DNA of 64,000 bases from an uncultured Actinomycetota bacterium. GTDB taxonomy: Bacteria > Actinomycetota > Actinomycetes > CAWDCV01. Below are positions 2,501-64,000 of the stretch, one piece after another. The notes beneath the pieces are model-generated. The model was not told the DNA's origin. It worked only from the letters and a program-made list of their open reading frames with translations, and ran no database searches. Position 1 is the first letter of the stretch, and every line of letters begins with the position of its first letter. A program made the position numbers and the translations under genes. The stretch spans positions 121,580 through 185,579 of the forward strand of contig CAWDCV010000005.1 in assembly GCA_963801015.1 (NCBI GenBank), read 5' to 3'.

Positions 2501-2629
2501 GTGTCGGCGAGGAGACGGTGCTCGACAGCAGGCGAGGTGTGCAGCTGTGGCAGACCGGCCGGTTCTCGAGGTTTTACTTCCCCCTCGATGACACCCGGTC
2601 CGATCTTCTGATTCCAGCGACGCGCGAGC

Positions 2630-10422: not shown

Positions 10423-10590
10423 GACGACCCATCGTCGGACAATTTTGTCGCGTTGGGAGGAGTTGGCGTTACACGAAATTAGCGATCTTTGACATTCCCT
10501 TGGTAGAAAGTGCCCGCGCCACTGGGGCACGATCGGCGTCGACGGGGATTGCACGACGTCACTGAGCCGAGCCGTAGCGGAGTCTTCTGA

Positions 10591-11124
10591 GTGTCGCAAC
10601 GCCGTGCGCGCCACCGTGATCGGGCGCTGCGCCGCCTGTCCGCCCTGAGTAAGAGCGTGGCGGCGGGCGCCGTCATCGCCACCGGCGGGATCACCGTCGC
10701 CATGGGTCAAGCCGCTGCCGTCTCGACGTCCGCAGATGGCGAGGCCGCCTCAGCCGCTGCCCCCGCCGGCACGCTCGAAGCTGCCACCCCAGCCGCATCG
10801 ATGACCGCCCCGCCGGCGGTCGCTATGGAGGCCGCTCCGGCGCCGGCCGAGGGCGCACCTGTCGAGCAGGCCCCCGCGGCTGAACAACCGGCGCCGGCAG
10901 CCACCGGACGTGCCGAGCTGGCCGCCGCCCCGCCGCCACCGCCGAACGAGGAGGCACCGCCCCCGCCGGAGCCGGAGCAGCCGCCGCCGAGCTCGGAGCC
11001 GCCTCCTCCACCGGCGCCCCCACCGGCGCCCCCACCGGCGCCCCCATCGACCCCGCCGAGCTCACCGCCGCCCAGCCCGACGTCGACACCGACCCCCAGC
11101 CCCACCCCCACCGGCGGGTCGTGA
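10591..11124 (+). CDS. Secreted/anchored Pro/Ala-rich low-complexity protein, first gene of the ApbE operon
   Basis: GTG start; basic N-terminus plus hydrophobic segment (SKSVAAGAVIATGGITVAMGQAAA), then a PAPPPAPPP.. low-complexity tail. Its stop overlaps the ApbE start (GTGA). Confidence 0.5.
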   Translation: MSQRRARHRDRALRRLSALSKSVAAGAVIATGGITVAMGQAAAVSTSADGEAASAAAPAGTLEAATPAASMTAPPAVAMEAAPAPAEGAPVEQAPAAEQPAPAATGRAELAAAPPPPPNEEAPPPPEPEQPPPSSEPPPPPAPPPAPPPAPPSTPPSSPPPSPTSTPTPSPTPTGGS

Positions 11125-12790: not shown

Positions 12791-14049
12791 CCGCCGTGAG
12801 CTCGGAGGTCCCCGTGCGCCGTCGGCGATCCGCGGCGCTGCTCCCGCGACTGCTGGCAGGCGTACAGCCCGGCGTCGGCTCGGTGTCGCTGACCGATCAT
12901 CTCGACATCCACGGGCCGGCGACGTCGACGTCCCTGGATGTCGTCGCCCGCAGCGGGCTGCGCGGGCGCGGCGGCGCCGGATTCCCCGTCGCTGCGAAGA
13001 TGCGCGCGGTCCTGAACGCACGCGGCCGAGCCGTCGTCGTCGCGAATGGCGCCGCCAGCGACCCGCTCAGCGAGAAGGACGCCCTCCTCCTCGCGCGCGT
13101 CCCGCACCTGGTTCTCGACGGCGCGCAACTTGCCGCGCATCTCGTCAAGGCGAAGCGGATCTACCTGTACGTCGTCGGGGTGGACTCGATCCTGACCACA
13201 GTCCGGTACGCCCTGTCCGAGCGGTCGCGGCGCGGACTCGATCAGGTGCCGGTCTCGATCGCGACAGCCCCCGACACCTACGTCGCGGGCGAGGCATCCG
13301 CCGTGGTACAGGCGCTGTCGGGCGGTCCGGCGGTGCCCACGTTCCGCCCGCCCCGGATGGCGGAGCGGGGTGTCGGTCGCCGGCCGACGCTGGTCAACAA
13401 CGTGGAAACGCTCGCGAACCTCGGGCTGCTCGCCCGCCACGACGCCGACTGGTTCCGTCAGCTCGGCCCGGTGGAGGAGCCTGGCTCCCTCGTGATCACC
13501 GTGCACGGGCACGATGGCGTCCCAGCAGTCGCGGAAGTACCGATCGGGACGACCGTCGGCGAGGTGCTGGAGACCACCGACCGGTGGGCGCGGGTGCCGA
13601 CTGCCGTGCTGGTCGGTGGGGCAAGCGGCAGATGGCTGCGCGCCGACATAGCGGTCGAGACCCCACTCAGCCACGACGGGCTACGTGCGGTCGGTGGTGC
13701 GCTGGGCGTCGCCTCGCTCATGGTGCTGCACGACGACGAGTGCGGCCTGATGGAGACGGCGCGGCTGGCCCGCTTTCTCGCGGCGGAGACGGCCGGCCAG
13801 TGCGGACCGTGTATCAACGGGCTGCCGGCCATCGCGTCGACGCTCGCATCGCTGGTCGCCGGCGACGCCGACGATCGCGACGTGGATCGACTCAAGAAGT
13901 GGTGCGGCATCATGCCGGGTCGTGGTGCCTGCGGGCACCCGGACGACACGGCAGGACTCGTCGCGAGTGCGCTGTCGGTGTTCGAGGACGACATCGCGTG
14001 GCACCTGCGGGGTAGCTGCATGCACGCGGCGACCGGTGCGGATCGATGA
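12787..14049 (+). CDS. NuoF-like protein (NADH-binding GRGGAGFP, SLBB, C-terminal 4Fe-4S CxxCxxC..C module)
   Basis: SGLRGRGGAGFPVAAKM NADH/FMN-site motif and C-terminal ETAGQCGPCINGLP...CGIMPGRGACGHP cluster motif; overlaps the FRD gene stop. Confidence 0.78.
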   Translation: MTAVSSEVPVRRRRSAALLPRLLAGVQPGVGSVSLTDHLDIHGPATSTSLDVVARSGLRGRGGAGFPVAAKMRAVLNARGRAVVVANGAASDPLSEKDALLLARVPHLVLDGAQLAAHLVKAKRIYLYVVGVDSILTTVRYALSERSRRGLDQVPVSIATAPDTYVAGEASAVVQALSGGPAVPTFRPPRMAERGVGRRPTLVNNVETLANLGLLARHDADWFRQLGPVEEPGSLVITVHGHDGVPAVAEVPIGTTVGEVLETTDRWARVPTAVLVGGASGRWLRADIAVETPLSHDGLRAVGGALGVASLMVLHDDECGLMETARLARFLAAETAGQCGPCINGLPAIASTLASLVAGDADDRDVDRLKKWCGIMPGRGACGHPDDTAGLVASALSVFEDDIAWHLRGSCMHAATGADR

Positions 14050-14276
14050 CCCGGCCGGAGGGCATGGTGCTGCGCGTCAACCCGATCACCTGCGAGGGGC
14101 ACGGACTGTGCGCCGAGCTGTTGCCGGAGCTGATGTCGCTCGACGACTGGGGCTACCCGTACCCGATGACCGTCGCCGTGCCGCCCAGCTTCGAAGGCCT
14201 CGCCGGCCGTGCCGCAAGGGTGTGCCCGACGCTCGCCATCCACCTCGAACGCCTGCGCACCGAGGCCACCGGCTGA
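14046..14276 (+). CDS. Ferredoxin, single-cluster actinomycete type (CxxHxxC...CP, 3Fe-4S/4Fe-4S)
   Basis: 76 aa; CEGHGLCAELLPEL....RVCPTLAI; ATGA overlap with the NuoF-like gene. Confidence 0.72.
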   Translation: MTRPEGMVLRVNPITCEGHGLCAELLPELMSLDDWGYPYPMTVAVPPSFEGLAGRAARVCPTLAIHLERLRTEATG

Positions 14277-40834: not shown

Positions 40835-41582
40835 CGCACCTCCTCCTCCGGCCGCACGCCTGCTCGAGGCACGGTTCCCCTCTCCACTATGGCGAGTCGA
40901 GGCGAACCGCGCTCTGGCAAGCACGCCGGCCCAGGCACCAATAGACGACGCCACGGCTTCGACCCGCAGCGGCCACACCGGCGCTCCCCGGTGCCGGCCG
41001 GGGGGTACCCGGCGGGCAGGAGCGAGTGGTTGTGGCAGCGCATCGAGGCCGATCGGTCGCGACGCGGTACCTAGGACGGACATGGAGCAGCCCCTTCCCC
41101 ACGCCTACGGGGCAGCTGTCGGGATGGGGCCGCAACCCGTCGACGGTGGGCACAGCGTGTGCGGTGCCCGACCTGGAACGGGTAGGGGAAGAGGGAAGTT
41201 GGCCCGGCCGCGCGGTAATTGTGCAGTGCGCGGCTGTCACCCCGAGGTCGCTCTATTCGAGAGACCGAGTGCCCGGTCCCCCGCTCCTGCCGTCATGGGC
41301 TCGAGCAGCCAGTGGCGGCAGGATTCGGCGTCCACCGGTGCACTCCCGCCAACTCATCGACGGGAGTAGCTGAGGCTAAACACATGGGGGCCGGGAACGC
41401 TACTCGGAGTCCATCCCGAGTTCGCTCGGTGTGGATTGTCGCCTACTTTCCGGTGATGCCTGGTAACGCAGTGCGAGAATGTGACACTCATCGGTGCGAT
41501 CGTGAGAAAAGTGTCACACGTGCATCCTTGCAACACCGCCGTTATATTTATGTTGGTGTTGCATGCAGCATTGACGTCTTAG

Positions 41583-42287
41583 CTACGTGATGGTGGCGAC
41601 GAACACGTGCGATGCCACTACAGCATCGAGTTCCGCCGTCTCCCCGCTGCTTCCGACGAGCACACCGGCTGGCGCTTTTCTCAACGTCACAACAGATCCC
41701 GGTGTTGCACCAACCCGTTGCAGCATCGACATGACATCGACATCAGTCTGCACTGGCTCACCGATGCGTCGCACGATCACCTGCCGACTTTCAGTGAGCG
41801 AAACTCGGTCGATGCTGACGACACCGTCCATGAATGCTTCCGGTGCAGCACCATCAGCAGGTATCTCGCCGAGCTCGTTCAAGCCAGGAATGGGGTTTCC
41901 ATACGGCGACTGCGTGGGATGACCAAGCAACTCGACCAGACGCTTCTCGACTGCTTCCGACATCACGTGCTCCCATCGGCATGCCTCTGGATGCACGTCC
42001 TCCCACGCCAACCCAATGACGTCGACGAGCAAGCATTCGGCGAGTCGATGCTTGCGCATCACCCGAGTCGCGAGCGCGCGTCCTTTCTCCGTCAGCTCGA
42101 GGTGGCGATCGCCCTCGACGGTGAGGAGACCATCACGCTCCATTCGGGCGACGGTCTGGCTCACCGTCGGGCCGGACTGCTGAAGGCGCTGCGCGATGCG
42201 CGCGCGCAGGGGCACGATGCCCTCCTCCTCGAGCTCGAAGATCGTGCGGAGATACATCTCCGTGGTGTCGATCAGGTCGTGGCTCAC
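41583..42287 (-). CDS. ideR: Iron-dependent transcriptional repressor, DtxR/IdeR family (with C-terminal SH3-like domain)
   Basis: MSHDLIDTTEMYLRTIFELEEEGIVPLRARIAQRLQQSGPTVSQTVARMERDGLL..; metal-site residues; 234 aa. Confidence 0.9.
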   Translation of the reverse strand: MSHDLIDTTEMYLRTIFELEEEGIVPLRARIAQRLQQSGPTVSQTVARMERDGLLTVEGDRHLELTEKGRALATRVMRKHRLAECLLVDVIGLAWEDVHPEACRWEHVMSEAVEKRLVELLGHPTQSPYGNPIPGLNELGEIPADGAAPEAFMDGVVSIDRVSLTESRQVIVRRIGEPVQTDVDVMSMLQRVGATPGSVVTLRKAPAGVLVGSSGETAELDAVVASHVFVATIT

Positions 42288-47151: not shown

Positions 47152-47341
47152 GGGTGGCCTCGGTTGCGTCGATGACATAAATTGCGGCGTACACGGGAAG
47201 GGAGGTGGTCCAGCGTTGAGTATTTCCTGGACGCGTGAGGTGGCTGTCAGTTAGCCGCCGTCCTTCGGACCGGTGGACTTCCTGATAGCTAGTTCCACCG
47301 CGACCGCCTGATGGCGGCCGGCGAATACCAGGCAGTCACCA

Positions 47342-47410
47342 CGACCCGCGGGTGCTGGGCCTCGTCCTCCCGGCCCTCCTCATGGAGGTAACCCCGCGGG
47401 TCGTTTGCTG
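47342..47410 (+). terminator. Composite hairpin structure ending in a T-tract: 11-bp outer stem CGACCCGCGGG/CCCGCGGGTCG enclosing two small hairpins, then TTTGCTG. Candidate bidirectional terminator between the convergent thioesterase-like and pdxH genes.
   Basis: Outer arms at 47342-47352 and 47393-47403; inner GGGCC-N10-GGCCC and CCTCC-tcat-GGAGG; TTT at 47404-47406; pdxH stop at 47412-47414. Confidence 0.4.
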
Positions 47411-47411
47411 T

Positions 47412-48065
47412 CTACGGCGCGAGTCGCCGCACGATCCACGGCCCGTCCGGAAGGTCGCGGACGTAGCGCAGCCGGTCGTGCAGCCGGTTCGGCCGTCCCT
47501 GCCAGAATTCCACCGCGTCGGGGACGATCAACACGCCTCCCCAATCGTCGGGCAGCGGTACGTCAGTGCCCTCGGGATACCGCTGCTCCAGCGCCGCGTA
47601 CCGCTCCTCGAGCTCCGTCCGTGACCCGATCACCGACGACTGTGGGCTGGCGAGCGCTCCGATCCGGGAGCCGTACGGACGCGACGCGAAGTACGCCGCG
47701 CTCTCCGAGCGCGAGACCCGCTCCGCCCGACCGGTGACGATGACCTGTCGCTCGACCGCATGCCAGGGGAACAGCATGCTGACCCAGGGGTTGGCCGCGA
47801 TGTCGTGGCCCTTGCGCGATGAGTAGTTGGTGTAGACGGTGAAGCCGCGCTCGTCCACGTCCTTGAGCAGTACGGTCCTGGCGGTCGGCCGTGCGTCGCG
47901 GCCCGCCGTGCCGAGGACGAGCGCGTTGGGCTCGACGATGCCCGCGTCGCGTACTTCGGCGAACCAGACGACGAACTGCGCCACCGGGTCAGGCGCCAGA
48001 TCAGCCTCGGACAGCGTCGACTGCAGGTAGCTGCGACGCAGGTTCGCCAGGTCGGTTGGTTGCAT
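47412..48065 (-). CDS. pdxH: Pyridoxamine 5'-phosphate oxidase
   Basis: 217 aa; ..PNALVLGTAGRDARPTARTVLLKDVDERGFTVYTNYSSRKG.. and C-terminal ..EFWQGRPNRLHDRLRY.. PdxH motifs. Confidence 0.9.
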   Translation of the reverse strand: MQPTDLANLRRSYLQSTLSEADLAPDPVAQFVVWFAEVRDAGIVEPNALVLGTAGRDARPTARTVLLKDVDERGFTVYTNYSSRKGHDIAANPWVSMLFPWHAVERQVIVTGRAERVSRSESAAYFASRPYGSRIGALASPQSSVIGSRTELEERYAALEQRYPEGTDVPLPDDWGGVLIVPDAVEFWQGRPNRLHDRLRYVRDLPDGPWIVRRLAP

Positions 48066-48151
48066 GTCCGGGTTCTAACACGAGTCGCGACAACCTCAGG
48101 CGGCGTGGTTAACAATGAGGCCGCCGTGAGCCGACAGCGGCGACGACGGGA

Positions 48152-52087: not shown

Positions 52088-53269
52088 GTGGCGGCGGTAC
52101 TGCAGCGCAGCGTCTGCATCATCGGGGCGGGTCCCTCGGGACTTCTGCTGTCCCACCTGCTTCACCTGCACGGAATTTCCTCGATTGTCCTTGAACGACA
52201 GACCAGGGAATACGTCGAGAGTCGGGTCCGCGCCGGCCTGCTCGAAGAAGGCAGCGTTGCCATCCTGAGGAATGCCGGCGTTGCCGGCCGGCTCGACCGG
52301 CAGGCACTTGTGCACACTGGCTTCCGGCTGCGCGTGGACGACGACGAATTCCGGTTCCCCTTTACCGAATTGTCCGGTCGACGCGCTTACATGTACGGGC
52401 AGCAGGCGGTCGTCCAGGATCTGCTTGCGGTGCATGACGCCGAAGCGCCGGAGGGCATCGCCTTCGACGTTCCTCAGATCGATATCTCGGTCGACAAGGA
52501 AACGGCTCGAGTCCGCGCCTGCATGAACGCTTCCGACGTCGAGATTTGCTGCGATTTCGTGGTCGGCTGCGATGGGTTTCACGGGAACTCCCGACGCAGC
52601 ATTCCGGCGGGAATCGCGACACACTACGACTACGCCTATCCGATTGCGTGGTTCGGCATTCTGGCTGAGTCTCCGCCGTCCGCCGACGAGCTCATCTACT
52701 CCGTGCAGTCCTCGGGCTTCGCTTTACACAGCATGCGATCTCCCGCAATCAGCCGGCTCTATCTCCAAGTCCGCCCCGGCACGACTCGGGACAGCCTCAC
52801 CGAGGACCAGATCTGGGCCGAGCTGGATGCGCGGCTGCTCGATCCCGGCGATCGGCTCGTCCGCGGACCCATCATCGAATCCACCGTGGTCACGATGCGC
52901 TCCTTCATGTGCGAGCCGATGTCCTACCGGCGGCTGTTCCTGGTCGGCGACGCGGCACACATCGTGCCGCCAAGCGCCGCGAAGGGGCTCAATCTCGCTG
53001 TCGCCGACGCCGCGTTGCTCGCCGACGCGATGGCTTGCTGGTACGACGCAGGCAGTCGCGCCCTGCTGGATTCGTATGCGGAGGTTGCTGGTCGTCGGGC
53101 GTGGCTTGGCCAGGAGTTCTCCGCGGTGATGACGGATCTCCTCCACGAGCTCGACAGCGACACGGCGTACGAGCGGCGCTTGCGCCGGGCACGGCTGCAT
53201 CGATTGGCACGGATGGACAGTGCCGCGAAGAGCTTCGCCGACAGTTATGTCGGCGCGAACCGGGATTAA
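52088..53269 (+). CDS. pobA: 4-hydroxybenzoate 3-monooxygenase (FAD-dependent)
   Basis: ..VCIIGAGPSGLLLSHLLHLHGI..ERQT..YV..RVRAGLLE..; ..CDGFHGNSRRSIPAG..; ..RLFLVGDAAHIVPPSAAKGLNLA... A 393-aa protein matching PobA along its whole length. Confidence 0.85.
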   Translation: MAAVLQRSVCIIGAGPSGLLLSHLLHLHGISSIVLERQTREYVESRVRAGLLEEGSVAILRNAGVAGRLDRQALVHTGFRLRVDDDEFRFPFTELSGRRAYMYGQQAVVQDLLAVHDAEAPEGIAFDVPQIDISVDKETARVRACMNASDVEICCDFVVGCDGFHGNSRRSIPAGIATHYDYAYPIAWFGILAESPPSADELIYSVQSSGFALHSMRSPAISRLYLQVRPGTTRDSLTEDQIWAELDARLLDPGDRLVRGPIIESTVVTMRSFMCEPMSYRRLFLVGDAAHIVPPSAAKGLNLAVADAALLADAMACWYDAGSRALLDSYAEVAGRRAWLGQEFSAVMTDLLHELDSDTAYERRLRRARLHRLARMDSAAKSFADSYVGANRD

Positions 53270-53271
53270 CT

Positions 53272-54351
53272 CTAGGTCTTGCGCCCGCGGCGCCGACCGA
53301 TGAGGAACGCGATAAGCATCGCCGCGCCGATAGCGAGAAGGGTCGGGCTCGCTCCACCGTCGTCGTCCGCGTCCGGGTCGTTCGTGTCGGTGATGATCCC
53401 GCCCTGGTCGCCTGCCGCAGCGGTATCCGGATCGGTGTCGGTGTCGCCTGATGTATCGCCTGATGTGCCGACCGCTCCCGTAGCGCCCGATCCGCCTCCG
53501 CCGTCAGCTCCCGTCGGAGGGCCGGCGCCGGCGAGCGGGATCTCCCAGATGGTGCTGTTGGCCTGCTCCGTGCCGGAGAGCAGCACCACCCCGCTGGGGC
53601 CGAACGTGACCGACTCGCCCTGGTTCTGCCCCTGGTCCTGGCCCGGGAGTTCCACGGCTCCGAGCGCGTTACCGGCTGGGTCATAGATCCAGGCGCGGCC
53701 ATAATCGCGCAGCACGAACAGCTGACCGTCGGCGGACCAGGTGCCGTCGGTGACGACGGCGGGGACGTCCCGAATGCGGACCAGCTCGTTGACTCCCTCG
53801 GTAGACAGCTGCTCCGGAGCCTCGTACAGCCCGCCGCCGAAGATCTCCTTCGTGGCGATCCACAGTCGACCCGTCACCGGGTTGACGAGCAGCGCCTCGG
53901 CGTCGTGGGGCAGGCCGTCGGGATAGCGCAACACGTATCTGGTGGTGGCGACTCTCGTCTCCCCAAGGTCGGGCTCATCGATGCGGTAGACCGCGATCTC
54001 CTCGCGGAGAACGTCGTTGTCGCCGATGTCGCCGACCCACAGTGTGCTGTTCGGGCCGCGGGCCACCGCCTCCCAGTCGACGTTCTCGGCGTCCTCGAGC
54101 GTGGCGACGGCGACCACACCGCCGTCGAACCCAACGCCGAACAGCTGGGGCGCTCCGCTGTCGTTGTTCATCCAGAGGACGCCCTGATGCCGGCCGCTCA
54201 ACGCGAGGCCGCTGGCCTCGGTGATCCGTGGATCGGAAATGACGAACAGCTCCCCCGAGCCGCCAGGCGGCGACGCGACAGCGGCCGGCGCCCAGCCAGC
54301 AGCGCCCAGGGCGATGCCGCCGATCAGTGCCGCTGCGGCCCAGCGCCTCAC
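53272..54351 (-). CDS. Secreted beta-propeller-like protein with Gly/Asp-rich linker and C-terminal membrane anchor
   Basis: Signal peptide MRRWAAAALIGGIALGAAGWAPAAVAS; repeated blade-like segments; GADGGGGSGATGAVGTSGDTSGDTDTDPD.. linker; C-terminal LLAIGAAMLIAFLIGRRRGRKT. Confidence 0.62.
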   Translation of the reverse strand: MRRWAAAALIGGIALGAAGWAPAAVASPPGGSGELFVISDPRITEASGLALSGRHQGVLWMNNDSGAPQLFGVGFDGGVVAVATLEDAENVDWEAVARGPNSTLWVGDIGDNDVLREEIAVYRIDEPDLGETRVATTRYVLRYPDGLPHDAEALLVNPVTGRLWIATKEIFGGGLYEAPEQLSTEGVNELVRIRDVPAVVTDGTWSADGQLFVLRDYGRAWIYDPAGNALGAVELPGQDQGQNQGESVTFGPSGVVLLSGTEQANSTIWEIPLAGAGPPTGADGGGGSGATGAVGTSGDTSGDTDTDPDTAAAGDQGGIITDTNDPDADDDGGASPTLLAIGAAMLIAFLIGRRRGRKT

Positions 54352-54498
54352 ACGTCCAACCGTACGTGATCTTTGTGTTCGCGCTCGGAGAGCGACCCTG
54401 CCGATTCTGGACGAAACGGTGCGAGAGTGACGTCGTGGTCTACACCCATCTCGGACGTACGGGACTGCAGGTCAGTCGGCTCTGCCTGGTAGCAGCTC

Positions 54499-54593
54499 CG
54501 AAATGATCACGTATACGTGATCATTTCGGGTCATACGCCTGTTGTAGGAGGCGTATCGCCCTCACTCGAGGCGTATCGCACGCCGTGATCACG
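54499..54593. repeat. Composite palindromic intergenic element, copy 2 (GAAATGATCACGTATACGTGATCATTTC palindrome, hairpin GGGTCATACGCC-N10-GGCGTATCGCCC, third copy GGCGTATCGCAC, GTGATCAC)
   Basis: See copy 1 at 27651..27745; same architecture and orientation. Confidence 0.7.
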
Positions 54594-54610
54594 GTCGTCG
54601 CGCCGCGGAG

Positions 54611-54700
54611 TCAGTCGCTCAAGGCTCCGAGCACGACGACGAGAGCGACGAGCGCGAGCAGGATGAGCGGGACCAGCCACCGACGAGTCCGGGGGTTCAC
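54611..54700 (-). CDS. Possible 29-aa single-TM micro-protein
   Basis: GTG 11 nt after the ThpR stop; VNPRTRRWLVPLILLALVALVVVLGALSD. Weak. Confidence 0.2.
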   Translation of the reverse strand: MNPRTRRWLVPLILLALVALVVVLGALSD

Positions 54701-54710
54701 GGCGTCGACC

Positions 54711-55265
54711 CTAGGGCGCGTCTGACAGCGTCCAGCGACGCACCACCTCGTACCGCGTCGTCCTGCCGAGATGGGACTGCATGAGGAAGATCTCGGCAAC
54801 GGTCCAGGGCGGGCCCACGTAGGAGTCGAGCGCCTCGACCGCCGTGGTGACGTCGGTCGGCGTACGTGCCCGGGCGAGGGTGAGGTGCGGACGGTACGCG
54901 CGCTCCTCGATGGCGATGCCCGTGCGCCGCACCGCGGCGCCCACCGACCCGGCCAGGCGACGCAGCGGCTCGCGGTCCCCGGTCACTCCGGTCCAGAGCA
55001 CGCGGGCGCGCCGGCGACTGCCGAACGTGCTTGCGCCCTCGAACGCAAGGTGGAGGACTGGATGTCGGCGAGCGGCGCGCCCCAACCGTTCAGTCAGTTC
55101 GGGAAGCAGACTCTCGTCGACGGACCCGAGAAAGCCGAGCGTCAGGTGCCAGGAGTCCGGCTCGGTCCAGCGCAGCGCGTCGTCCTGCGATCGCAGCGAT
55201 CGGGTGGCGTCGGCCAGGTGGCGGCGTGCTTCCGGCGACGGCGAAAGCGCCACGAACAGCCTCAC
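54711..55265 (-). CDS. thpR: RNA 2',3'-cyclic phosphodiesterase (2H phosphoesterase, LigT/ThpR)
   Basis: Two H.T. motifs: ..WHLTLGFLG.. and ..PHLTLARAR..; 184 aa. Confidence 0.85.
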   Translation of the reverse strand: MRLFVALSPSPEARRHLADATRSLRSQDDALRWTEPDSWHLTLGFLGSVDESLLPELTERLGRAARRHPVLHLAFEGASTFGSRRRARVLWTGVTGDREPLRRLAGSVGAAVRRTGIAIEERAYRPHLTLARARTPTDVTTAVEALDSYVGPPWTVAEIFLMQSHLGRTTRYEVVRRWTLSDAP

Positions 55266-55999
55266 TGGGTGGCGAGCGACAGCCGTTCTCTGAGCTCGGC
55301 GATCACGGCGGCGTCACCCTCGACGGTGACCGCGGACAGCGGGCGGCGGCCCCACAACCACAGCAGCAGTTCCGACGGTTCGCCACTCACGGTCGCGTGG
55401 CTCGGACCCGGTCCCTCAGTGAGCGTGACTTCCTCCTGATCGAGCGTCGCTCGCCACAGATTTTCACCGGTACGGATCGCGACGGTGCTGCCGCTGGCGT
55501 CATCCACGGGTTCCTCGGACCAGTCGCCCGCGAGAAACAGCGTGAGAACCTCGTCCACGCCGTCGAGAGCCAGATCGTCGTCAATGTGGGTGACATCGCC
55601 AGTGACGGACTGCACGTCGACCCGGTGCACCGCGGTCTCCTGTGCCATCCGGCGATACCAGAATCCCACCGTCTGGTCGTCGGGCCACCAGGTGTACGAC
55701 GGCGCCGATGGTCCGCGGCGGACGAGTTCCTCGAGCAGGGCGGCCAGCGCCTCGCGGAAGAACTCGACCGAGCCCTGGTCAGGCGCGGGAGCGGTGGCGT
55801 ACTCGTCATCCTCCGGGCGCCGGCCGAGCTGCATACAGGCGATCTTGTGGTGATAGACCCTCCCCGTGTGCTCCAGGGCGTCGCGCGCCGACCAGCCCGG
55901 ACAGGTCGGGACCGGCGCATCCAGGTCGATGGCGGCCGCCGTATCGACGAGCAACATCGCTTCGGACGCAAGCAGATCGAGGTAGCGCTCTGGTGTCAC
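55262..55999 (-). CDS. Maleylpyruvate isomerase N-terminal domain family (mycothiol-dependent, DinB_2/TIGR03083-like) protein
   Basis: ..PVPTCPGWSARDALEHTG.. signature near the N-terminus. Confidence 0.72.
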   Translation of the reverse strand: MTPERYLDLLASEAMLLVDTAAAIDLDAPVPTCPGWSARDALEHTGRVYHHKIACMQLGRRPEDDEYATAPAPDQGSVEFFREALAALLEELVRRGPSAPSYTWWPDDQTVGFWYRRMAQETAVHRVDVQSVTGDVTHIDDDLALDGVDEVLTLFLAGDWSEEPVDDASGSTVAIRTGENLWRATLDQEEVTLTEGPGPSHATVSGEPSELLLWLWGRRPLSAVTVEGDAAVIAELRERLSLATQ

Positions 56000-56092
56000 G
56001 AGCCGGCCTCCGGCGCGAGCACACAGCTGGAGCGCAGTCGACGGGGGCCGGCGGGATAAGAGCTCATGGCGGACCAGCCTGACACGTCGCCG

Positions 56093-57391
56093 TCAGGCCG
56101 CGCTGGCAGACTCCCCAACCCGGCGTACCTGTGCCGGTTGCGGTCGTGGCCGGACGTGGACGTGTGGCCGCGGCCGCACGTGCGGCCGGATGACGAGATC
56201 GCGCTTGCGGGCCAGCAGCATGCCGATGACCACGGCGGCGGCCAAGGAGACCGAGCCACCGAGCACCAGGCTCCAGCGCGGGCCGAACATCTCGGCCACC
56301 CAGCCCATCAGCGGTGCTCCAAGCGGCGCGCCACCGAAGAACACGGTGGTGTACAGCGCCATCACGCGGCCGCGCATCTCGGGTACGGAGCCAAGCTGCA
56401 GCGTCGCATTGGCCGACGTCATGAACGTCAGCGCGGCGAAGCCGGTCGGCACGAGCATTGCGAGGAACAACCAGTACGTCGGCATCAGCGCGCAAAGGAC
56501 CTCGAGCACGCCGAATGCGAATGCGGATCCCAGCACGAGCCGCTTGAGAGGACGGCCTCGACGAGCAGCGACGAGGGCTCCGCCGAGGGTGCCAACGGCC
56601 ATCGCAGTGGACAACCAGCCGTACGCCGCAGCGCCGCCGTCGAATACATCGGCGGCGAAGACGGCGAGCAGCATCGAGAAGTTGAGCCCGAAGGTGCCAA
56701 CGAAAAAGACGAGCACGATGGTGAGCAGCAGGTCGGGACGGCTGCGGACGTACGTCAGGCCCGCGCGCAGCTGTCCCTTTGCCCGCTCAATCGCCGGGGG
56801 TGTACGCAGCTCGCGGCGGCGCAGGCGCGCGAGCGACCAGATCACCGCGCTGAACGAGACCGCGTTGATCAGCACCACCCAGCCAGCGCCGATCCAGACG
56901 AGCAGGACGCCAGCGATCGCGGGGCCGACGAGGCGGGCCATGTTGAAGGACGCCGAGTTGAGCGCAACGGCGTTGGGCAGGTCGTCCCTACCGACCATTT
57001 CGATGACGAACGACTGCCTGGTCGGGTTGTCGACAGCGGTGATGCAGCCGAGTACGAACGCGAGCACGTAGACATGCCACGCCTGCGCGGTTCCGGTAAC
57101 AGCGAGCAGGCCGAGAATCAAAGCCTGAACGCCAAGGGCAGCCTGCGACAGCATGAGCAACCGGCGCTTGTCGAATCGGTCGGCCAGCACGCCGCCGTAC
57201 ATGCCGAAGAGCAGCAGCGGAAGGAACTGCAGACCGGTCGATATGCCGATCGCGGTGGCGCTGCCGGTGAGCTGCAGCACGAGCCAGTCTTGGGCGACCC
57301 GCTGCATCCAGGTGCCCGTGTTGGACACGATGGCGCCGGCGGCAAAGATGCGGTAATTGCGGACGTGCAGGGAACGAAACGTCGGACTCAC
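56093..57391 (-). CDS. MFS transporter (EntS/MFS_3-like exporter)
   Basis: GTG at 57391 overlaps the MarR stop (GTGA): VSPTFRSLHVRNYRIFAAGAIVSNTGTWMQ..; 12 TM helices. The track ORF extends to 57832 through the MarR antisense. Confidence 0.82.
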   Translation of the reverse strand: MSPTFRSLHVRNYRIFAAGAIVSNTGTWMQRVAQDWLVLQLTGSATAIGISTGLQFLPLLLFGMYGGVLADRFDKRRLLMLSQAALGVQALILGLLAVTGTAQAWHVYVLAFVLGCITAVDNPTRQSFVIEMVGRDDLPNAVALNSASFNMARLVGPAIAGVLLVWIGAGWVVLINAVSFSAVIWSLARLRRRELRTPPAIERAKGQLRAGLTYVRSRPDLLLTIVLVFFVGTFGLNFSMLLAVFAADVFDGGAAAYGWLSTAMAVGTLGGALVAARRGRPLKRLVLGSAFAFGVLEVLCALMPTYWLFLAMLVPTGFAALTFMTSANATLQLGSVPEMRGRVMALYTTVFFGGAPLGAPLMGWVAEMFGPRWSLVLGGSVSLAAAVVIGMLLARKRDLVIRPHVRPRPHVHVRPRPQPAQVRRVGESASAA

Positions 57392-57816
57392 GCTTGCGCC
57401 AGCCGCTCCAAGATCGATGTGGCGGCGCGCAGCGTGTCGCGTTCCGCGGACGTCAGCGTGCGCAGCCGGGTAGCGAGCCAGGCATCGCGGCGGCGGCGGT
57501 CCTCGCGCAGCATCGTCTTCGCCTGGGTGGTGGGGGTGACGAGCACCTGCCGGCCGTCGGTGGAGTGCGGCGTCCGGTCGACGAGGCCAAGCTCTTCGAG
57601 CTGGCCGAGGATGCGTGTCATCGACGGCGGCTGCACTCGCTCGTGTGTCGCCAGCTCGCGCGGGGTCATGGCGCCATGCCGGTCGAGCGAGGAGAGCGCG
57701 GCCAGCTGGCTGACCGTCAGGTCGGCGTCGGACGAGCGCTCGTTGCGCAACCGACGTGCCAGACGCATGACACAGATGCGCAACGCGCTCGCAAGCTCGC
57801 TGTCGCTCCTGATCAC
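57388..57816 (-). CDS. MarR-family transcriptional regulator
   Basis: ..LTVSQLAALSSLDRHGAMTPRELATHERVQPPSMTRILGQLEELGLV.. winged HTH. Confidence 0.85.
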   Translation of the reverse strand: MIRSDSELASALRICVMRLARRLRNERSSDADLTVSQLAALSSLDRHGAMTPRELATHERVQPPSMTRILGQLEELGLVDRTPHSTDGRQVLVTPTTQAKTMLREDRRRRDAWLATRLRTLTSAERDTLRAATSILERLAQA

Positions 57817-57859
57817 GCGTCGCCGTCGACACGACCCTTAGTCTAGCTCATTAGCCTCG

Positions 57860-58831
57860 CTAACGGGATTTTTCCGCGGGGTGAAGCGGGTCGAGCCACT
57901 CCCGAGCATCGACGGCCCAGGCCGGGCCGTCGATGTCACGTGCGCGCAGCAGATGCGGAGCCTTGACTCGCCGGGTGAGCACCCGGCTGGCGTCGGCCAC
58001 GACGGGCAGCAGCTGTCCCCGAGCCGCTGCAAGGACCCAGTGCTGAATCGCCGGAAAACGCCGGCCCCTGCGCAGACACGATTCAGCGAGCCAACGGTGA
58101 ATGCGGCCTCGATCGACCGTGACGTCATGCAAACGTTCGATACGCCGCACACCCCGCAGAACCTCGGGCACATCGAGCGACGCATTCCCGGCGTGCAGGC
58201 GATACGCGACCAACCGGCGTTGCGCCACCGCCGGCGGTCCGAGCCGCGACAGCCGAAGCCACATCTCCCAGTCCTCGATGTTCCGGAGGCCAGCGTCGAA
58301 TGGACCGGCACGAGCCAGCAGGTTCCGGCTGGCGATCACATTCGAGCCTCCGCCCGGTATGGCGTTGTAGCGAGGTAGCGCGCGAACTGCCTCGTCCGCA
58401 GTTGGCGTGGGCGGCGCGGAGACGGGGTGGAGCGCGACGTCGACGTTGACGACTCCGCAATACGCCCAGTCCCGGCCACTACGTCGGGCGGAGGCGATCT
58501 GCTCGGACAACTTGTCCGGAGCCCAGACGTCGTCGTCGTCGCAGAACGAGATCCAGTGACCGGTGGACGCGCTGATGCCGGCGTTGCGGGCCTGGCTCAC
58601 CCCCTGCGGCAACGAGTGGCGAAGGTGTTGGGTACGGGCGTCGGCAAAGCTGGCGATGACGTCGCCGGTCCCGTCGGACGAGCCGTCGTCCACGACGACG
58701 ACCTCGAGCTCGACGTCGCGCTGTGCCAGCACCGCACGCAGCGTGGTCCGCAGGAGTGTGCTGCGGTTGTGCGTCGGAATGACGACGGTCACCTCGGGCA
58801 CGTCGGAAGCGTATGGCGCGGGTCCTGGCAA
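57860..58831 (-). CDS. Glycosyltransferase family 2 protein (intact member of a four-paralog set)
   Basis: ..VTVVIPTHNRSTLLRTTLRAVLAQRDVELEVVVVDDGSSDGT..; ..FCDDDDVWAPDKL..; single 323-aa ORF. Confidence 0.85.
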   Translation of the reverse strand: MPGPAPYASDVPEVTVVIPTHNRSTLLRTTLRAVLAQRDVELEVVVVDDGSSDGTGDVIASFADARTQHLRHSLPQGVSQARNAGISASTGHWISFCDDDDVWAPDKLSEQIASARRSGRDWAYCGVVNVDVALHPVSAPPTPTADEAVRALPRYNAIPGGGSNVIASRNLLARAGPFDAGLRNIEDWEMWLRLSRLGPPAVAQRRLVAYRLHAGNASLDVPEVLRGVRRIERLHDVTVDRGRIHRWLAESCLRRGRRFPAIQHWVLAAARGQLLPVVADASRVLTRRVKAPHLLRARDIDGPAWAVDAREWLDPLHPAEKSR

Positions 58832-58913
58832 CTCTCCTTCGCAGTGCCCGCGGCCCGATTAGCATGCGGCAATCCGAGGCCGACGACCGAGGTGGATGCG
58901 ACGTGGGGGGACG

Positions 58914-59883
58914 ATGGCCGACAGGGACGGGAAGCGCCCCGTTCTCGTCCTCGGACTGACTCCCCGGACGGGCACCAACTACCTGTGGGATCTGCTCCGG
59001 CTGCACCCTGCATGCGCCGGCGGACGGGAACCGATCCGCGAGGACTTCTTCCTCGAGCACGCACGTCTGCTGGCCGAGTTCGTCAGCGCCGTCCGCAGCC
59101 GTTGGGATCCGGCGTGGGGACAGCTGGACGACGAAACCGTGGCGGACCTTCGGGCCGGCCTCGGGCTCGGCGCTGCTGCGGTTCCTGACCGTCGATTCCG
59201 ATCGCCGGCTCGTCACCAAGAATCCGAGCGTCGCAGGCATCGACCGGGTGTTCGACTTCTTCCCGACGGCACAAGTGATCATCCTGGCCAGAGACGGGCG
59301 TGCCGTCGTGGAGTCGTGTGTCCGATCCTTCGGCTGGGACCTCGATCTCGCCGCCCGACGCTGGGCGACGGCCGCTCGGACGGGGCTTGGTTTCCTGGCC
59401 AGCCGAGGTCCGCATGACCCGAGCGTCCGCCTCGTGCGCTACGAGGACCTGGTTGTCGACTGCCCTGGGCAGATGAGGCGGCTGCTGCGCTTCCTCGACC
59501 TGGACACCGCCGAGTACGACTTCGCGGCTGCTGAGCACCTTCCAGTGCGAGGATCCTCCGTTTTCCACGGCGGAAAGCCGCAGGTGCATTGGGATCCCGT
59601 CGAACGAACGGACGGCTTCGACCCGCTGCGTCGCTCGGAGCACTGGAGCCTCCCTCAACATGAACGCTTCGCCTGGCTCGCCGGCCGCGAGCAGGTCGCC
59701 CTGGGCTACTCCTTGGACGCGGCGACGCCGGTGACACCGAGCGGGCGCGCACATCAGACCTGGCTCAGCACCCAGTGGCGGATCCGCCGGGGCGCGAAGC
59801 TCGCCGAGTACCGGACGCGCGGCTGGCTCGGGCCCCCAACCCGGCCGCTGCGCAGGCGACTTGGGCTGGCACATGAGTCCTGA
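58914..59883 (+). pseudogene. Sulfotransferase-family protein with a +1 frameshift near 59169
   Basis: Frame 0: MADRDGKRPVLVLGLTPRTGTNYLWDLL (PAPS 5'PSB-like) ..DLRAGLG. Frame +1 from 59170: ALLRFLTVDSDRRLVTKNPSVAGIDRVFDFFPTAQVIILARDGRAVVES... (3'PB region). The two pieces form one sulfotransferase. Confidence 0.68.
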
Positions 59884-60797
59884 GGTCTCCGTGGTGATCC
59901 CGACCCACAACCGACGGGAGCTGCTCGCGCTCACGTTGCGGACGGTCTGCGAGCAGAAGGACGTCGACCTCGAAGTCATCGTGGTCGACGACGGCTCGAG
60001 GGAGGAGGCTGCCCGCGAGGTCGTCGGAGCCCGCCAGGACCCTCGGGTGCGTCTCCTGCGAAACGCCACGCCGATGGGCGTCAGCGCCAGCCGCAATCGC
60101 GGCGTAGAGGAGGCCGTCGGGCGCTGGGTGGCGTTCTGTGACGACGACGACCTGTGGGCCCCGCAGAAGCTGCGCGAGCAGCTAGCGCAGCGGAGCAGGC
60201 CAGCCGCTCGTGGGTGTACGCGGGCGCGGTCAAGATCGACGATGCCCTGCGCGTCATCGGTGGCGAGCCGCCCCAGCCGCCCGGAAGTCGTGCATCGGCG
60301 GTTGCCCCGGTGGACCCTGGTCCCGGGCGGCTGCTCGGGTGTGATCGCTCGCCGGGATCTCGTTCGGGACGTGGGTGGCTTCGACCCCGACCTGGTCAAT
60401 CTCGCCGACTGGGACCTGTGGAGCCGCCTGGCTGGGTACGGTCCGCCCGCGGCCGTGCCGTTGCCACTCGTCGGCTATCGAATCCACGGCGGCAACTCCT
60501 CGCAGGACACCAGCCTCGTGCTGCGGGAGCTCGACCGGCTCGACGGGCGCTACGGCGTCCGCGTGGATCGGGCCGCCGTCCATCACTATCTGGCGTGGGT
60601 GTCCTTGCGGGGAGGGCGTCGGCGGCAGGCGGGCCGGGCACTTCCTGCAGGCAGCCGGACGCGGCGATGTCGTCGGCGTCGCCCGCAGTCTGTCGGCGCT
60701 CGCCCGGGGTCACCTCGCCGGACCGGCTCGGCCGCTCCCCCATGCCGAGTGGCGGTATGCGGCCGATCGGTGGTTGGAGCCGCTGCGATGGGGCTAA
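59873..60797 (+). pseudogene. GT2 glycosyltransferase paralog with three frameshifts (about 60190, 60283, 60630)
   Basis: Segments in three frames (..FCDDDDLWAPQKLREQLAQ | AEQASRSWVYAGAVKIDDALRVIGGEPPQPP | EVVHRRLPRWTLVPGG...LRGGRR | AGHFLQAAGRGDVV..PLRWG*) align colinearly with the intact paralog 57860..58831. Confidence 0.68.
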
Positions 60798-61752
60798 CCG
60801 AGCTCATCGAGCCACGCCTGAGCCGTGGAGAAGTAGGCGGCCAGTGCAGCGTCCGGTACCGGCGGCGCCGGGAACGGCAGGTGCATCCGGCGGGCCAGCT
60901 GCCCGCTGCGGGCGCCGAGCAGCTGGCCGACGTCGAGCAGCAGCGCATCGCGCCGGTACGGCGGGGACAGCCGGGCAGTTCGCGCGTACCAACGCAGCGC
61001 CTCCCCGCGACGGCCCGCTCGCGCCGAGAGTCGGCCGAGGTGTCGGTACAGCGTGACGCGGTCCAGCGGTCCGCCGTACCTGCGCTCGATCTCGAGCGCT
61101 CCCCTGAGGATCTCCGACGTCACCAGAGACGAGCCTCGATCGTGCACGCGGTAGCCGACGAGGGGAGCAGGGACCCAACGCGGCGTCGAGAGCCGGCTCA
61201 ACCGCACCCACATATCCCAGTCCTCGGTGTTGCGGAGTCGACCATCGAATGGACCGGCGCGCTCGAACAGGCTGTGGTGGACGAGCACGCCGGAGCCACC
61301 GCCGGGTACGACGTTGCGCCGCGGCAGGAGCGCGGCCACCTGCTCCGGAGGAAGGGGCAACGTTCCCCCCACGACCCGACCCGTGACGTCGACGTTCACC
61401 GAACCGGTGTAGACCCAGCCCGCCCATCCATCGTCGGTCGCGCGCAGTTGCTCCGTGAGCTTGTCCGGAGCCCAGACGTCGTCGTCGTCGCAGAACGCGA
61501 CCCAATCGCCACCTGCCGCAGCCGCCCCCGGTTGCGCGCGGCACTCACGCCCTGGGCGGTCTCGTTGCGCAGCGGTCGGATCCGGTCGTCGGCGACCTGT
61601 TCCAGGACGGCCACCACCTGCCCTGGCGGCGATCCGTCGTCGACCACCACGATCTCGAGGTCGACGTCCCGCTGGCTCCTGATCGAGCACAGCGTGTGGC
61701 GGAGGAGGTGCGCGCGGTCGTGCGTGGGGACGACGACGCTCACCGCAACCAT
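60794..61752 (-). pseudogene. GT2 glycosyltransferase paralog with one frameshift in a G5/C5 run near 61527
   Basis: N-terminus MVAVSVVVPTHDRAHLL...VSAARNRG (ORF 61396..61752), then AAAAGGDWVAFCDDDDVWAPDKLTEQ... continues in the frame of ORF 60794..61903. Confidence 0.68.
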
Positions 61753-61778
61753 CCGCGCACGGTAGCGAGCCGAGCCCG

Positions 61779-63042
61779 GTGACCCGAGCCCGTCCCGGAA
61801 CGGCGCTGCTGCCCGCCGGAGACCGGTTCGAGGACTTCTTCGACAAGGTCGGCGTGACTCTGGAGTCGTTCCGCCACGAGCAGACCGGCGGCTGGCTGTT
61901 CAACTACGTCGAGGCGTTGCGCAGCGGCGGCTGCGACACGGCGCTCGTGTTCATGTCCGCCCGCGTGACCGGCCCCGTCCGCTTCGTCCACCAGCCCACC
62001 GGCTGCCGGGTCAGCGTCCTGCCCAGCCCATCGTGCATCGCAAGCTACGGGCGGCTCGATGGCGCTTCGCCCCCGAATCGCGGCTGCTCCGGTCGCTGGA
62101 GGCGTACGTCGCGACGCCGCCGCGCGCGCTGTCGCGAGAGCTGCAGCGGCTGGACTGCACTGTGTTGCTCTGCCAGGAGTACGAGTCGGCGCGGTTCGAC
62201 GTGTGCGTCATGCTCGGCCGCCTGACCCGGCCGCCCGGTGTTCGCCACGTACCAGGGCGCCCAGGACGGCCACAGTCCCTGGGAGCGCCCGGTGCGTCGG
62301 CTGGCGATGCGGTGGTGCCAGGGAGTGATCGTCGGGAGCGCGGTTGAACGAGAGCGGGTCCGGGCTCGCTATCGCATGCCCGCGGAGAAGCTGGCGCCGA
62401 TCCCGAACCCGCTGGACGTGCGGCGCTGGGACCAGGAGACCAGAACGAGGCCCGTGAAGCGCTGGGGCTCCCGCTCGAGCGACGCATCGTCGTCTGGCAC
62501 GGGCGGGTGCAGATCGAGCGCAAGGGCCTGGACGTGCTGCTCGAGCGCCTGGCGGCTGCTGTACGCCGCCCGGCCGGACCACCGCCACTGCTCCTTCTCG
62601 TCGGTTCCGGCCGGGACGCCGAGGAGCTGCGTCGGCGACTGCGCGACCCGGCGCTCGGTGGCGTCATCTGGGTCGACGAGTACGTGCAGGACCGTGATCG
62701 GTTGTGGCGCTACCTCGCCGCGGCCGACGTCGCCACGCTGCCCTCCCGGCACGAAGGCTTCGCGCTCGCGGTGCTGGAGGCGATGGCCTGTGGGCTGCCC
62801 GTGGTCGCCGCCGACGTCTCCGGGGTACGGACCTGCTCGAGGCGGCGGCCGGGGTGGAGACGGGAATCGTGGTGCCGCCCGACGACGCCGAGGCGCTCGC
62901 CGCCGCGCTCGGGCTCCTGATCGACGACCCCGACCGCAGCCGTCGCCTCGGAGCGGCGGCGCGAGCCGTCGCCGAGTCCTTCTCGCTCGAGCAGGTCGGC
63001 AAGCAGCTCGCCGCCGTCCTCGTACCCGGGTCCGGGCGATGA
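61779..63042 (+). pseudogene. GT4 (group-1) glycosyltransferase with at least 4 frameshifts (about 62010, 62235, 62432, 62825)
   Basis: GT4 pieces are spread over frames: N-domain (..FVHQPTGCRVSVLPSPS), ..LEAYVATPPRALSRELQRLDCTVLLCQEYESARFDV.., ..VIVGSAVEREWVRARYRMPAEKLAPIPNPLDVRRWD | PGDQNEAREALGLPLERRIVVWHGRVQIERKGLDVLLERL...HEGFALAVLEAMACGLPVVAADVSG | GTDLLEAAAGVETGIVVPPDDAEALAAAL... Confidence 0.62.
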
Positions 63043-63072
63043 GCGGGGGATCCACGCCGACGAGAACCCGAA

Positions 63073-64000
63073 GTGACCGTGGTGGTGCCGACGAAGGACC
63101 GGGGCGCGCTGCTGAGTCAGACGCTGCGCAGCATTCGCTGGCAGCGGGACGTCGACTTCGAGGCGCTCGTGGTCGACGACGGCTCGATCGACAGCGAGTT
63201 GGTCCGGCGGGTGGTCGCGGATCTCGACGACGCCCGGTTCCGCGTCCTGCGGAACGAGACGAGCCGAGGCGTCAGCGCCGCGCGCAACCGTGGAGCGGCG
63301 GAGGGAGCGGGGCGGTGGGTGGCGTTCTGCGACGACGACGATCTGTGGGCGCCGGACAAGCTCGCGAAGCAGCTGGCGGCCGTCCGCGGGTCGGGGGCGG
63401 ATTGGGTGTACGTCGGGTCCGTCAACGTGACGATGCGCAACCGGGTCGTGGGCGGGGAGCTCCGCCACCTCCGCCCGCCGAGGTCGTCGAGCAGCTGGAG
63501 GAGCACAACGTCGTCCCGGGAGGAGCCTCCGGCGTGCTCGCGCGCCGGAGCGTGCTGCAGGACGTGGGCGGCTTCGACCCCGCCCTGCAGCCGCTGGCCG
63601 ACTGGGATCTGTGGTTGCGGGTCCTGCACGTGTCAGCGCCCGCCTGTGTTGCCGAGCCGCTCGTGGCCTACCGGGTCCACGGCACGAACATGTCGCTGGA
63701 CACTCGACGCGTCGAAGCGGACTTCGCTGTGGTGGCGGGGCGAAACCCGCGGGCGAACCGCGCGGTCCTCTACCGATACCTGGGCTGGTGGTCCATCCGG
63801 GTCGGCCGCCACGCGGACGCAGCTCGCCTCTTCCTTCGGGGGGCGGCAGAGCGGGACGCGCGCTACCCGGTCGACCTCGCCCGGCAGGACCTGATCTATC
63901 TCGCTCGGCAGGCCGCGGATCGCGCCCGCGTTCTCCTCCGGCCAGGCCGCCCGGCGCGGCGCCCGCCGGTCGCCGCCGTCGTCGAGCACGCGGACTGGCG
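63073..64000 (+). pseudogene. GT2 glycosyltransferase paralog with one frameshift in a C-run near 63465; runs off the window end
   Basis: MTVVVPTKDRGALLSQTLRSIRWQRDVDFEALVVDDGS...FCDDDDLWAPDKLAKQ..VVGGEL, then PPPPAEVVEQLEEHNVVPGGASGVLARR...ADWDLWLRVLHVS... in the -1 frame to position 64000. Confidence 0.68.

Follow-up and report, generated by a model that had tools for sequence, protein, structure and literature searches.

Gene content and frame breaks

The window, the whole 64,000-nucleotide stretch of DNA analyzed here, ends in a group of six genes (positions 57860-64000) that Pfam matches and alignment to intact orthologs identify in order as an intact family 2 glycosyltransferase (GT2), a sulfotransferase, two GT2 genes, a group-1 glycosyltransferase (GT4), and a further GT2, confirming the content proposed in an earlier note made from the sequence. 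Twelve indels, each of 1-2 nt, interrupt five of the six genes between 59162 and 63452. We sought frame breaks in three independent ways, all of which agreed on these 12: a codon-usage Viterbi frame tracker, frameshift-aware protein-to-DNA alignment against the intact orthologs of a more distant syntenic locus (L003), and DNA alignment to a 97%-identical assembly of the same species (L081; ERZ25039547 contig_7801, about 1,494,848-1,515,681; 98.2% and 97.0% DNA identity). An independent forest-soil scaffold at 88% identity (L082) was used as an outgroup. The genes, including two that give context, are as follows.

56093..57391, minus strand: MFS_3 transporter gene, context, single frame (frame tracker; L081 ortholog PF05977 MFS_3)
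57388..57816, minus strand: MarR-family regulator gene, context, single frame (frame tracker; L081 ortholog PF12802/PF01047 MarR)
57860..58831, minus strand: GT2#1, intact family 2 glycosyltransferase (Pfam PF00535, E=2e-30)
~58914..59883, plus strand: Sulfotransfer_3 sulfotransferase, one extra C at 59162 (PF13469 match split over two frames)
59873..60797, plus strand: GT2#2, broken at 60185 (-1), 60283 (+G), and 60634 (+C) (alignment to L003 and L081)
60794..61752, minus strand: GT2#3, broken at 61525 (PF00535 match split over two frames at profile position 73)
61779..63042, plus strand: GT4, PimB-like group-1 glycosyltransferase, six breaks (PF13439 and PF00534/PF13692 matches in different frames)
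63039..64000, plus strand, continuing ~45 nt beyond the window end: GT2#4, start 63039/63073, broken at 63452 (+GC) (PF00535 and PF10111 matches in different frames)

The 12 indels, with the alignments that place them, are:

59162: private 1-nt insertion (C); L003 protein and L081 DNA alignments
60185: private 1-nt deletion (L081 has C); L003 and L081 alignments
60283: private 1-nt insertion (G); L003 and L081 alignments
60634: private 1-nt insertion (C); L003 and L081 alignments
61525..61529: private 1-nt deletion in a C run (C5 in the window, C6 in L081); L003, L081, and L082
62027: private 1-nt deletion; L003, L081, and L082
62231: private 1-nt insertion (C); L003, L081, and L082
62428: private 1-nt deletion (G4 to G3); L003, L081, and L082
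62544: private 1-nt insertion (A); L003, L081, and L082
62581: private 1-nt deletion (A); L003, L081, and L082
62830: private 1-nt deletion (A); L003, L081, and L082
63452..63453: private 2-nt insertion (GC); L003 and L081 alignments

Clustering of the frame breaks, which had also been noticed earlier, is real: 12 events fall within 4.3 kb versus a single one, in a DUF427 gene at ~2866-2880, across the preceding ~58.8 kb that make up the rest of the window. The ten coordinates first proposed each lie within ~20 nt of a true site, though the pair at 62544 and 62581 had been missed. The frame tracker over-calls within membrane-protein genes; we set aside the shifts that it placed at 58907, 63031, and 63063, all of them ahead of start codons, and a candidate at 14608 proved to be an ordinary gene boundary.

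Once their frames are restored, the broken genes align with those of relatives. Intact GT2#1 matches its L003 ortholog at 67% identity in one frame throughout the alignment, and the restored sulfotransferase is 70% identical to that of L003, with the L081 counterpart an intact 322-aa protein that lacks the extra C. Restoring GT2#2, all three of whose break sites are frame-preserving in L081, raises its identity to L003 from 73% to 80%, and the GT2#3 break is bridged without a frame change in L082 as well. The restored GT4 protein shares 72% identity with L003 across 424 codons without stops; it has dozens of full-length homologs (412-436 aa, 70-76% identity), and its L082 ortholog is an intact protein of 424 aa. 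GT2#4 may hold a thirteenth indel, an extra G at 63056 close to the gene start, and its C-terminal fragment, P0127, extends past 64000; this fragment and P0123 are carried as broken fragments in the annotation of the 187,848-bp source contig (NCBI and ENA).

The earlier note placed most of the shifts in G or C homopolymer runs, but in the intact state only two of the 12 sites lie in runs of at least 4 nt (61525, C6 to C5, and 62428, G4 to G3), 61525 is the sole shift inside a run of at least 5 nt, and no run in the locus exceeds 6 nt. The sites lay barely closer to homopolymers than random (P ~0.05 for runs of at least 4 nt, 0.32 for runs of at least 5 nt), and we rejected the association. Hypermutable simple-sequence tracts at the switch points were likewise absent from the locus, where TRF returned just three arrays, each of two copies, with periods of 9-13 nt. 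Tract length differs between strains at 61525 alone (C5 versus C6), in a species represented by two genomes only.

Comparison with related assemblies

In the DNA alignment to L081, all 12 sites are frame-preserving, and the adjoining 3.85 kb contains a single gap of 20 nt. The outgroup scaffold agrees with L081 at each of the seven window sites that it spans and with the window at the private GT4 shift of L081, and all six L003 genes each run in a single frame. At the level of aligned sequence, this comparison shows the indels to be derived in the window relative to the three other assemblies.

L081 has private indels of its own: six in GT2#1 (at window positions 57869, 57924, 58061, 58593, 58614, and 58827), one in GT4, and more in the genes for the Wzm/Wzt exporter, where a direct check confirmed the breaks for Wzm only and found them probable at the Wzt N-terminus. 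These differ from those of the window, so the genes of this locus that are broken vary from one assembly to the other. The window and L081 differ by 22 indels alongside 213 mismatches, and every one of these indels is private to one assembly, with no frameshift common to both. The earlier note would have read fixed frameshifts shared among relatives as plain pseudogenes, and the opposite was found. Nowhere else do the two same-species assemblies diverge as much as at this locus.

Searches for further copies covered several sources. The 90% clusters of intact L081 proteins contained no further same-species genomes, a search with a 142-aa GT4 segment over three close sites returned no same-strain fragments (best matches 79-89% identical), and exact-protein look-ups of GT2#1, P0123, and MarR returned no same-strain contig over the locus. 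Run ERR12916207 holds the window strain at 100% identity, and the only same-strain Logan contig found is 921 bp long and lies 11 kb away from the locus. Contigs of the closest relatives carry Flye-style 'contig_N' names or belong to Microflora Danica MAGs, which were built from Nanopore reads alone and polished with one round of Medaka.

The restored genes carry a purifying-selection signature. Pooled dN/dS against L081 is 0.22 in the restored frames (99 synonymous and 60 non-synonymous differences), compared with 0.27 for intact GT2#1 and 0.07-0.18 for flanking genes, the MFS_3 transporter gene standing at 0.07. The ~1,770 restored codons contain no in-frame stops, alignment to L003 revealed no large deletions or IS elements in the restored genes, and GC3 periodicity is kept. 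Polarized replacements number 11 private to the window and 21 private to L081, with no window excess. Over the 1.85 kb of 61174-63020, private changes in the window lineage comprise 12 substitutions and 7 indels, versus 18 substitutions and 1 indel in the L081 lineage and 178 substitutions and 1 indel on the L082 outgroup branch.

Origin of the frame breaks

We consider it very probable, judging from the assembled sequences, that the frame breaks arose as consensus errors where a metagenome-assembled genome, probably a long-read one, is poorly supported. The 12 frame breaks would then most likely be absent from the organism's own DNA, and the locus itself would be functional, an ordinary actinobacterial cluster for the biosynthesis of a cell-envelope glycan. 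Long-read errors fit the indels being private to one assembly while close relatives preserve the frame, the indel-heavy spectrum of the window lineage (7 indels versus 12 substitutions), and genes that otherwise look functional in their selection, GC3 periodicity, and freedom from stops, but the homopolymer concentration typical of a well-covered Nanopore consensus is lacking. Because residual errors in well-covered Nanopore data usually sit at homopolymers, the scarcity of such sites here requires an extra assumption and points to a low-depth or mixed-haplotype consensus rather than to homopolymer miscalls. The errors would be confined to ~4.3 kb of the contig, where the sequence quality approaches what one long read gives (about 0.28% indels), in what is probably a MAG of the Nanopore/metaFlye type. 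Low effective depth or mixed strain haplotypes, the local cause that we infer, would fit this locus being the most divergent part between the same-species assemblies, and an explanation of this kind may extend to the error-richness of both L081 and the window, two independent assemblies, at the same place. Indels were not significantly nearer to SNPs than random (P ~0.2), as errors from haplotype mixing might have been.

The earlier note had listed genuine decay, contingency-like switching, and consensus error without choosing among them. The evidence favors the last and contradicts the other two, though the reasons then given for consensus error fail, since few sites are homopolymeric and collapse of paralog reads is unlikely. 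We rejected paralog collapse because the GT2 paralogs are only ~68-70% identical in DNA and because the single-copy GT4 and sulfotransferase genes are hit equally hard.

An unlikely alternative is a genuine inactivation of the operon in the very recent past, with real single-base indels gathered independently in the window and L081 strains because the glycan pathway is dispensable or counter-selected, for example by phage. The reading frames are indeed disrupted, the breaks are limited to one functional unit, as when the genes of a dead pathway drift together, and L081 too has broken genes at the same locus. Surface-glycan loci are known targets of inactivation, the O-antigen cluster of Yersinia pestis having several frameshifted genes, and 22 indels among 213 mismatches are not by themselves beyond the ranges seen in pseudogenes. 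Against this, a dN/dS of 0.22 implies that most of the divergence arose under selection, and the window lineage is not accelerated relative to L081 in either private substitutions (12 versus 18) or private replacements (11 versus 21), contrary to the relaxed constraint expected of pseudogenes. Bacterial indel rates are roughly ten-fold lower than substitution rates, and 7 private indels per 12 private substitutions would need an indel-dominated mutation spectrum. Among the lesions there is neither a nonsense mutation nor a larger deletion or IS insertion, and no lesion is inherited in common by two strains that are 97-98% identical. Six independent lesions in one 1.26-kb GT4 gene are also excessive for a very young pseudogene.

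If the indels were nevertheless real, co-existing strains would each be rapidly and independently knocking out different genes of a sulfated-glycan locus, to which we assign a very small probability. Indel-biased, locus-restricted mutation, for example where a surface receptor is under pressure from phage or predators, might then produce strain-private frameshift mosaics without repeat tracts. It is also quite improbable that some of the 12 indels are real, such as the C6/C5 change at 61525, and the others errors. That site could be a true homopolymer length difference between strains, and one real knockout would look the same as an error in the present data, but no site stands out: all 12 are private, 1-2 nt long, and set in conserved flanks.

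Slipped-strand, contingency-type phase variation that toggles the glycosyltransferases is effectively refuted already and retains hardly any probability: in some pathogens phase variation classically targets glycosyltransferase genes and 61525 does sit in a C5/C6 run, but the longest homopolymer is 6 nt, tandem or short-repeat tracts are missing, 10 of the 12 indels lie outside runs of at least 4 nt, and slippage could not revert 12 simultaneous 'off' sites scattered over five genes, six of them in one.

Taken at face value, the frameshifts would lead five of the six genes of a conserved envelope-glycan pathway to be annotated as pseudogenes, and might mislead a reader into inferring that this uncultured actinobacterium has lost a surface glycan or has a phase-variation system. 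Recognizing a consensus failure instead flags the region for re-polishing, and repaired protein sequences for the pathway are now provided. The stretch would also show that clusters of errors in MAGs can fall on glycan loci that vary between strains and so mimic biology. Should the frameshifts be real, they would represent an unusual strain-private, repeat-independent inactivation of a surface-glycan locus.

Comparison with known systems

Surface-glycan glycosyltransferase genes are broken by single-base length changes in phase-variable loci as well, such as the LOS or capsule genes of Campylobacter, Haemophilus, and Neisseria with their poly-G/C tracts. Here, in contrast, long homopolymers and short-repeat tracts are absent, many sites are scattered within each gene, and the host is a high-GC soil actinobacterium. 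Decayed surface-polysaccharide clusters, including the frameshifted O-antigen genes of Y. pestis and the pseudogene-rich envelope loci of Mycobacterium leprae, resemble the window in that small indels interrupt several genes of one glycan pathway, but their lesions are fixed and lineage-shared under relaxed constraint, whereas ours are private to an assembly and lie in genes under purifying selection.

Errors in long-read (Nanopore or PacBio CLR) assemblies and MAGs are closer in form: private indels of 1-2 nt split conserved open reading frames that relatives restore, and gene-fragmenting indel errors in long-read assemblies are described in the papers on Kastor (PMC12007338) and Polypolish (PMC8812927). 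The residual errors commonly described affect homopolymer length and are spread genome-wide, unlike the present ones, which are strongly clustered (12 in 4.3 kb versus 1 in 58.8 kb) and for the most part not in homopolymers, so one has to assume something local, for example a dip in depth or a mixture of haplotypes.

As to the pathway itself, the four GT2 genes and the GT4 gene of the window recall polysaccharide loci that depend on a Wzm/Wzt ABC transporter, which likewise hold multiple GT2 and GT4 transferases. In L081 and L003 the next genes downstream are exporter genes of this kind, encoding a Wzm ABC-2 permease and a Wzt that carries a Wzt_C domain; they lie beyond the point at which the window ends. 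Loci of this type do not usually have a Sulfotransfer_3 enzyme embedded in them, and its presence sets this one apart.

Frame breaks in the glycan cluster

The high GC content of the window (66–73%) generates long spurious open reading frames (ORFs) in all frames, so ORF lists alone were uninformative. A GC3 phase plot revealed numerous phase changes at 58.8–64 kb, and Pfam scans of stop-to-stop segments detected six genes.

Genes detected by Pfam scans, with coordinates and strand as recorded
57863–58858 (-), GT2, intact
(+), Sulfotransfer_3 domain, match divided over two frames
about 59888–60433 (+), GT2
(-), GT2, PF00535 match divided over two frames at profile position 73
(+), GT4, Glyco_transf_4 and Glycos_transf_1 halves in different frames
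(+), fourth GT2, also split between frames

As an unbiased measure of clustering, we ran a frame tracker over all 64 kb, using a codon-usage model trained on the confident ORFs of the window and a 7-state Viterbi path (six frames plus non-coding). About ten same-strand switches without passing a stop were placed at 59147–63476, and the first 58 kb held candidates only at 2866 and 14608: the latter was rejected as an ordinary gene boundary, and the former is a real frameshift within a DUF427 gene. The earlier note was therefore accurate in describing frame breaks with only this one other event in the preceding 58 kb or so, and the tracker and the alignments described below confirm that the clustering is a genuine property of the sequence.

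The DUF427-like gene (2612–3171, +), which holds the sole frameshift outside the glycan locus, splits at about 2866–2880 between an upstream frame (...HPRDPYHRVDV...) and a following frame (...RYYLPFADV...CPYNGDGQHW...), and is probably a consensus error of the same kind as the glycan-locus breaks. The tracker also called non-coding stretches of 0.6–1 kb at 439–1034, 1632–2611, 10432–11192, and 40838–41720, only the first of them partly accounted for, by a tRNA-Arg at 552–625.

Comparison with related loci

With the intact GT2 as query, a scan of GTDB species representatives identified a syntenic locus (L003) in an uncultured Actinomycetota MAG from the Microflora Danica set, with 66–73% amino-acid identity to the window and 6/6 genes in single frames. 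Frameshift-aware protein-to-DNA alignment of its six proteins placed 12 shifts in the window, with high identity restarting immediately past each; once restored, the frames contain no in-frame stop. Identity to L003 was 68–80% for the five broken genes (all but GT2#1) versus 67% for intact GT2#1. Three extra shifts (58907, 63031, and 63063) precede start codons and were not counted.

The repaired GT4, used as query against a large protein collection, returned dozens of full-length homologs (412–436 aa, 70–76% identity) and one protein, P0038, that is 95% identical yet only 277 aa long, encoded on a 1.59-Mb ENA contig from the same species (L081). This assembly matched window 52164–55993 at 98.2% DNA identity with one gap of 20 nt, and 56064–64000 at 97.0% with 22 gap openings. 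All 12 predicted sites were 1–2-nt indels relative to L081 (in the window, six 1-nt deletions, five 1-nt insertions, and one 2-nt insertion), and the L081 state preserved the frame at each. L081 has private indels of its own, six within GT2#1 (intact in the window) and one in the GT4 N-terminus, which explains the 277-aa call. Its Wzm permease gene is interrupted by two in-frame stops and is out of frame over one stretch, and its Wzt N-terminus is probably shifted. Its private indel clusters lie at 5600–6620 and 12900–14100 of the same glycan locus (ENA ERZ25039547 contig_7801), and two gene calls further downstream, one GT87/MptA-like (310 aa) and one GT4 (262 aa), likewise appear to be cut short.

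An intact 424-aa GT4 (P0121), a member of the 90% cluster of P0038, lies on an independent forest-soil scaffold (L082) with 87.7% DNA identity to the window. L082 covers seven of the window sites and has the L081 state at each; at the L081-private GT4 shift it has the window state. The indels are therefore derived and private to each assembly, with none in common.

Mismatches between the window and L081 peaked at 32 per 500 nt in the locus versus 2–5 in the flank, the locus being the most divergent part of these same-species assemblies. Their density was uneven (32, 3, and 24 per 500 nt at 60000–60500, 61500–62000, and 63000–63500), which suggests that recombination among strains has made the cluster a mosaic. 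A 20-nt deletion at 54488 relative to L081 (CGGCACGATGAACTTCGGGC), within tracker-called non-coding 54334–54716, is probably a natural strain difference.

Origin of the indels

Taken together, the comparative and evolutionary results make an assembly artefact the probable source of the clustered frame breaks. Among the readings raised in the earlier note, this evidence favors consensus error and leaves genuine decay and contingency switching less likely. Between the window and L081, dN/dS computed in restored frames was 0.15 for the sulfotransferase, 0.17 for GT2#2, 0.38 for GT2#3, 0.18 for GT4, and 0.35 for GT2#4 (pooled 0.22; 99 synonymous and 60 non-synonymous), compared with 0.27 for intact GT2#1 and 0.07–0.18 for flanking genes.

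Genuine decay of the locus is the best surviving alternative, though unlikely: drift long enough for 12 real indels should have left the window with many more neutral changes than its sister, and it has fewer. The broken genes carry 11 private replacements in the window versus 21 in L081 (outgroup L003), and over 61174–63020 (outgroup L082) the window lineage has 12 private substitutions and 7 indels, the L081 lineage 18 and 1, and the L082 branch 178 and 1. The indel-dominated pattern of the window's own changes is the mark of single-molecule consensus error, not bacterial mutation. That only some of the indels are real and the rest errors is somewhat less probable still.

The earlier note had placed most shifts in G or C homopolymers, which did not hold: runs in the locus reach at most 6 nt, just one of the 12 shifts falls in a run of at least 5 nt (61525, C6 to C5) and another in a 4-nt run (62428), and closeness to runs was not convincingly above random. 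Tandem Repeats Finder returned no relevant array in the locus and the 12 site contexts had no common motif. With slipped-strand switching thus unsupported, and twelve "off" lesions, six within one gene, that could not work as a switch, phase variation is highly improbable.

A 187,848-bp contig (NCBI, ENA) encodes two proteins, P0123 (211 aa) and P0127 (169 aa), that correspond exactly to fragment ORFs of the window; the window thus belongs to a deposited MAG whose annotation includes the broken genes as fragments. Public reads of this strain exist, since a Logan contig assembled from run ERR12916207 matches window 47228–48148 at 100% identity. The closest relatives come from contigs named in the Flye style ("contig_N") and from MAGs of Microflora Danica, a project that assembled Nanopore reads alone with metaFlye and applied a single round of Medaka (PMC12313526), from which we infer a long-read platform for the source contig. 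The local indel rate (12 in 4,291 nt, about 0.28%) and non-homopolymer placement fit a stretch with very few reads or mixed haplotypes. Because the locus is so divergent within the species, reduced effective depth in strain-variable DNA is plausible; direct indel–SNP association between the window and L081 was not significant.

The underlying glycan locus

An Ms_IGR-5 sRNA adjoining pdxH (47191–47409, +; Rfam, 86 bits, E=1e-17) belongs to a family described in Mycobacterium smegmatis, and supports an actinobacterial origin. In both L081 and L003, the glycan cluster runs on, just past the position of the window end, into genes directly 3' of GT2#4 (L081 11854–13575, L003 2518–4717) for a Wzt ATPase, which carries a carbohydrate-binding Wzt_C domain at its C-terminus, and a Wzm permease. 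This indicates an envelope polysaccharide pathway of the ABC-transporter-dependent type, whose product is possibly sulfated. The GT2 enzymes belong to the GT-A-fold transferases and, among solved structures, are closest to chondroitin synthase and a PglI-type glucosyltransferase; the GT4 resembles PimB-type mannosyltransferases, and the sulfotransferase is distantly related to the TPST fold. In ABC-transporter-dependent pathways, Wzt_C recognizes a chain-terminating cap, and the Sulfotransfer_3 enzyme encoded within the cluster might attach such a cap in the form of a sulfate group.
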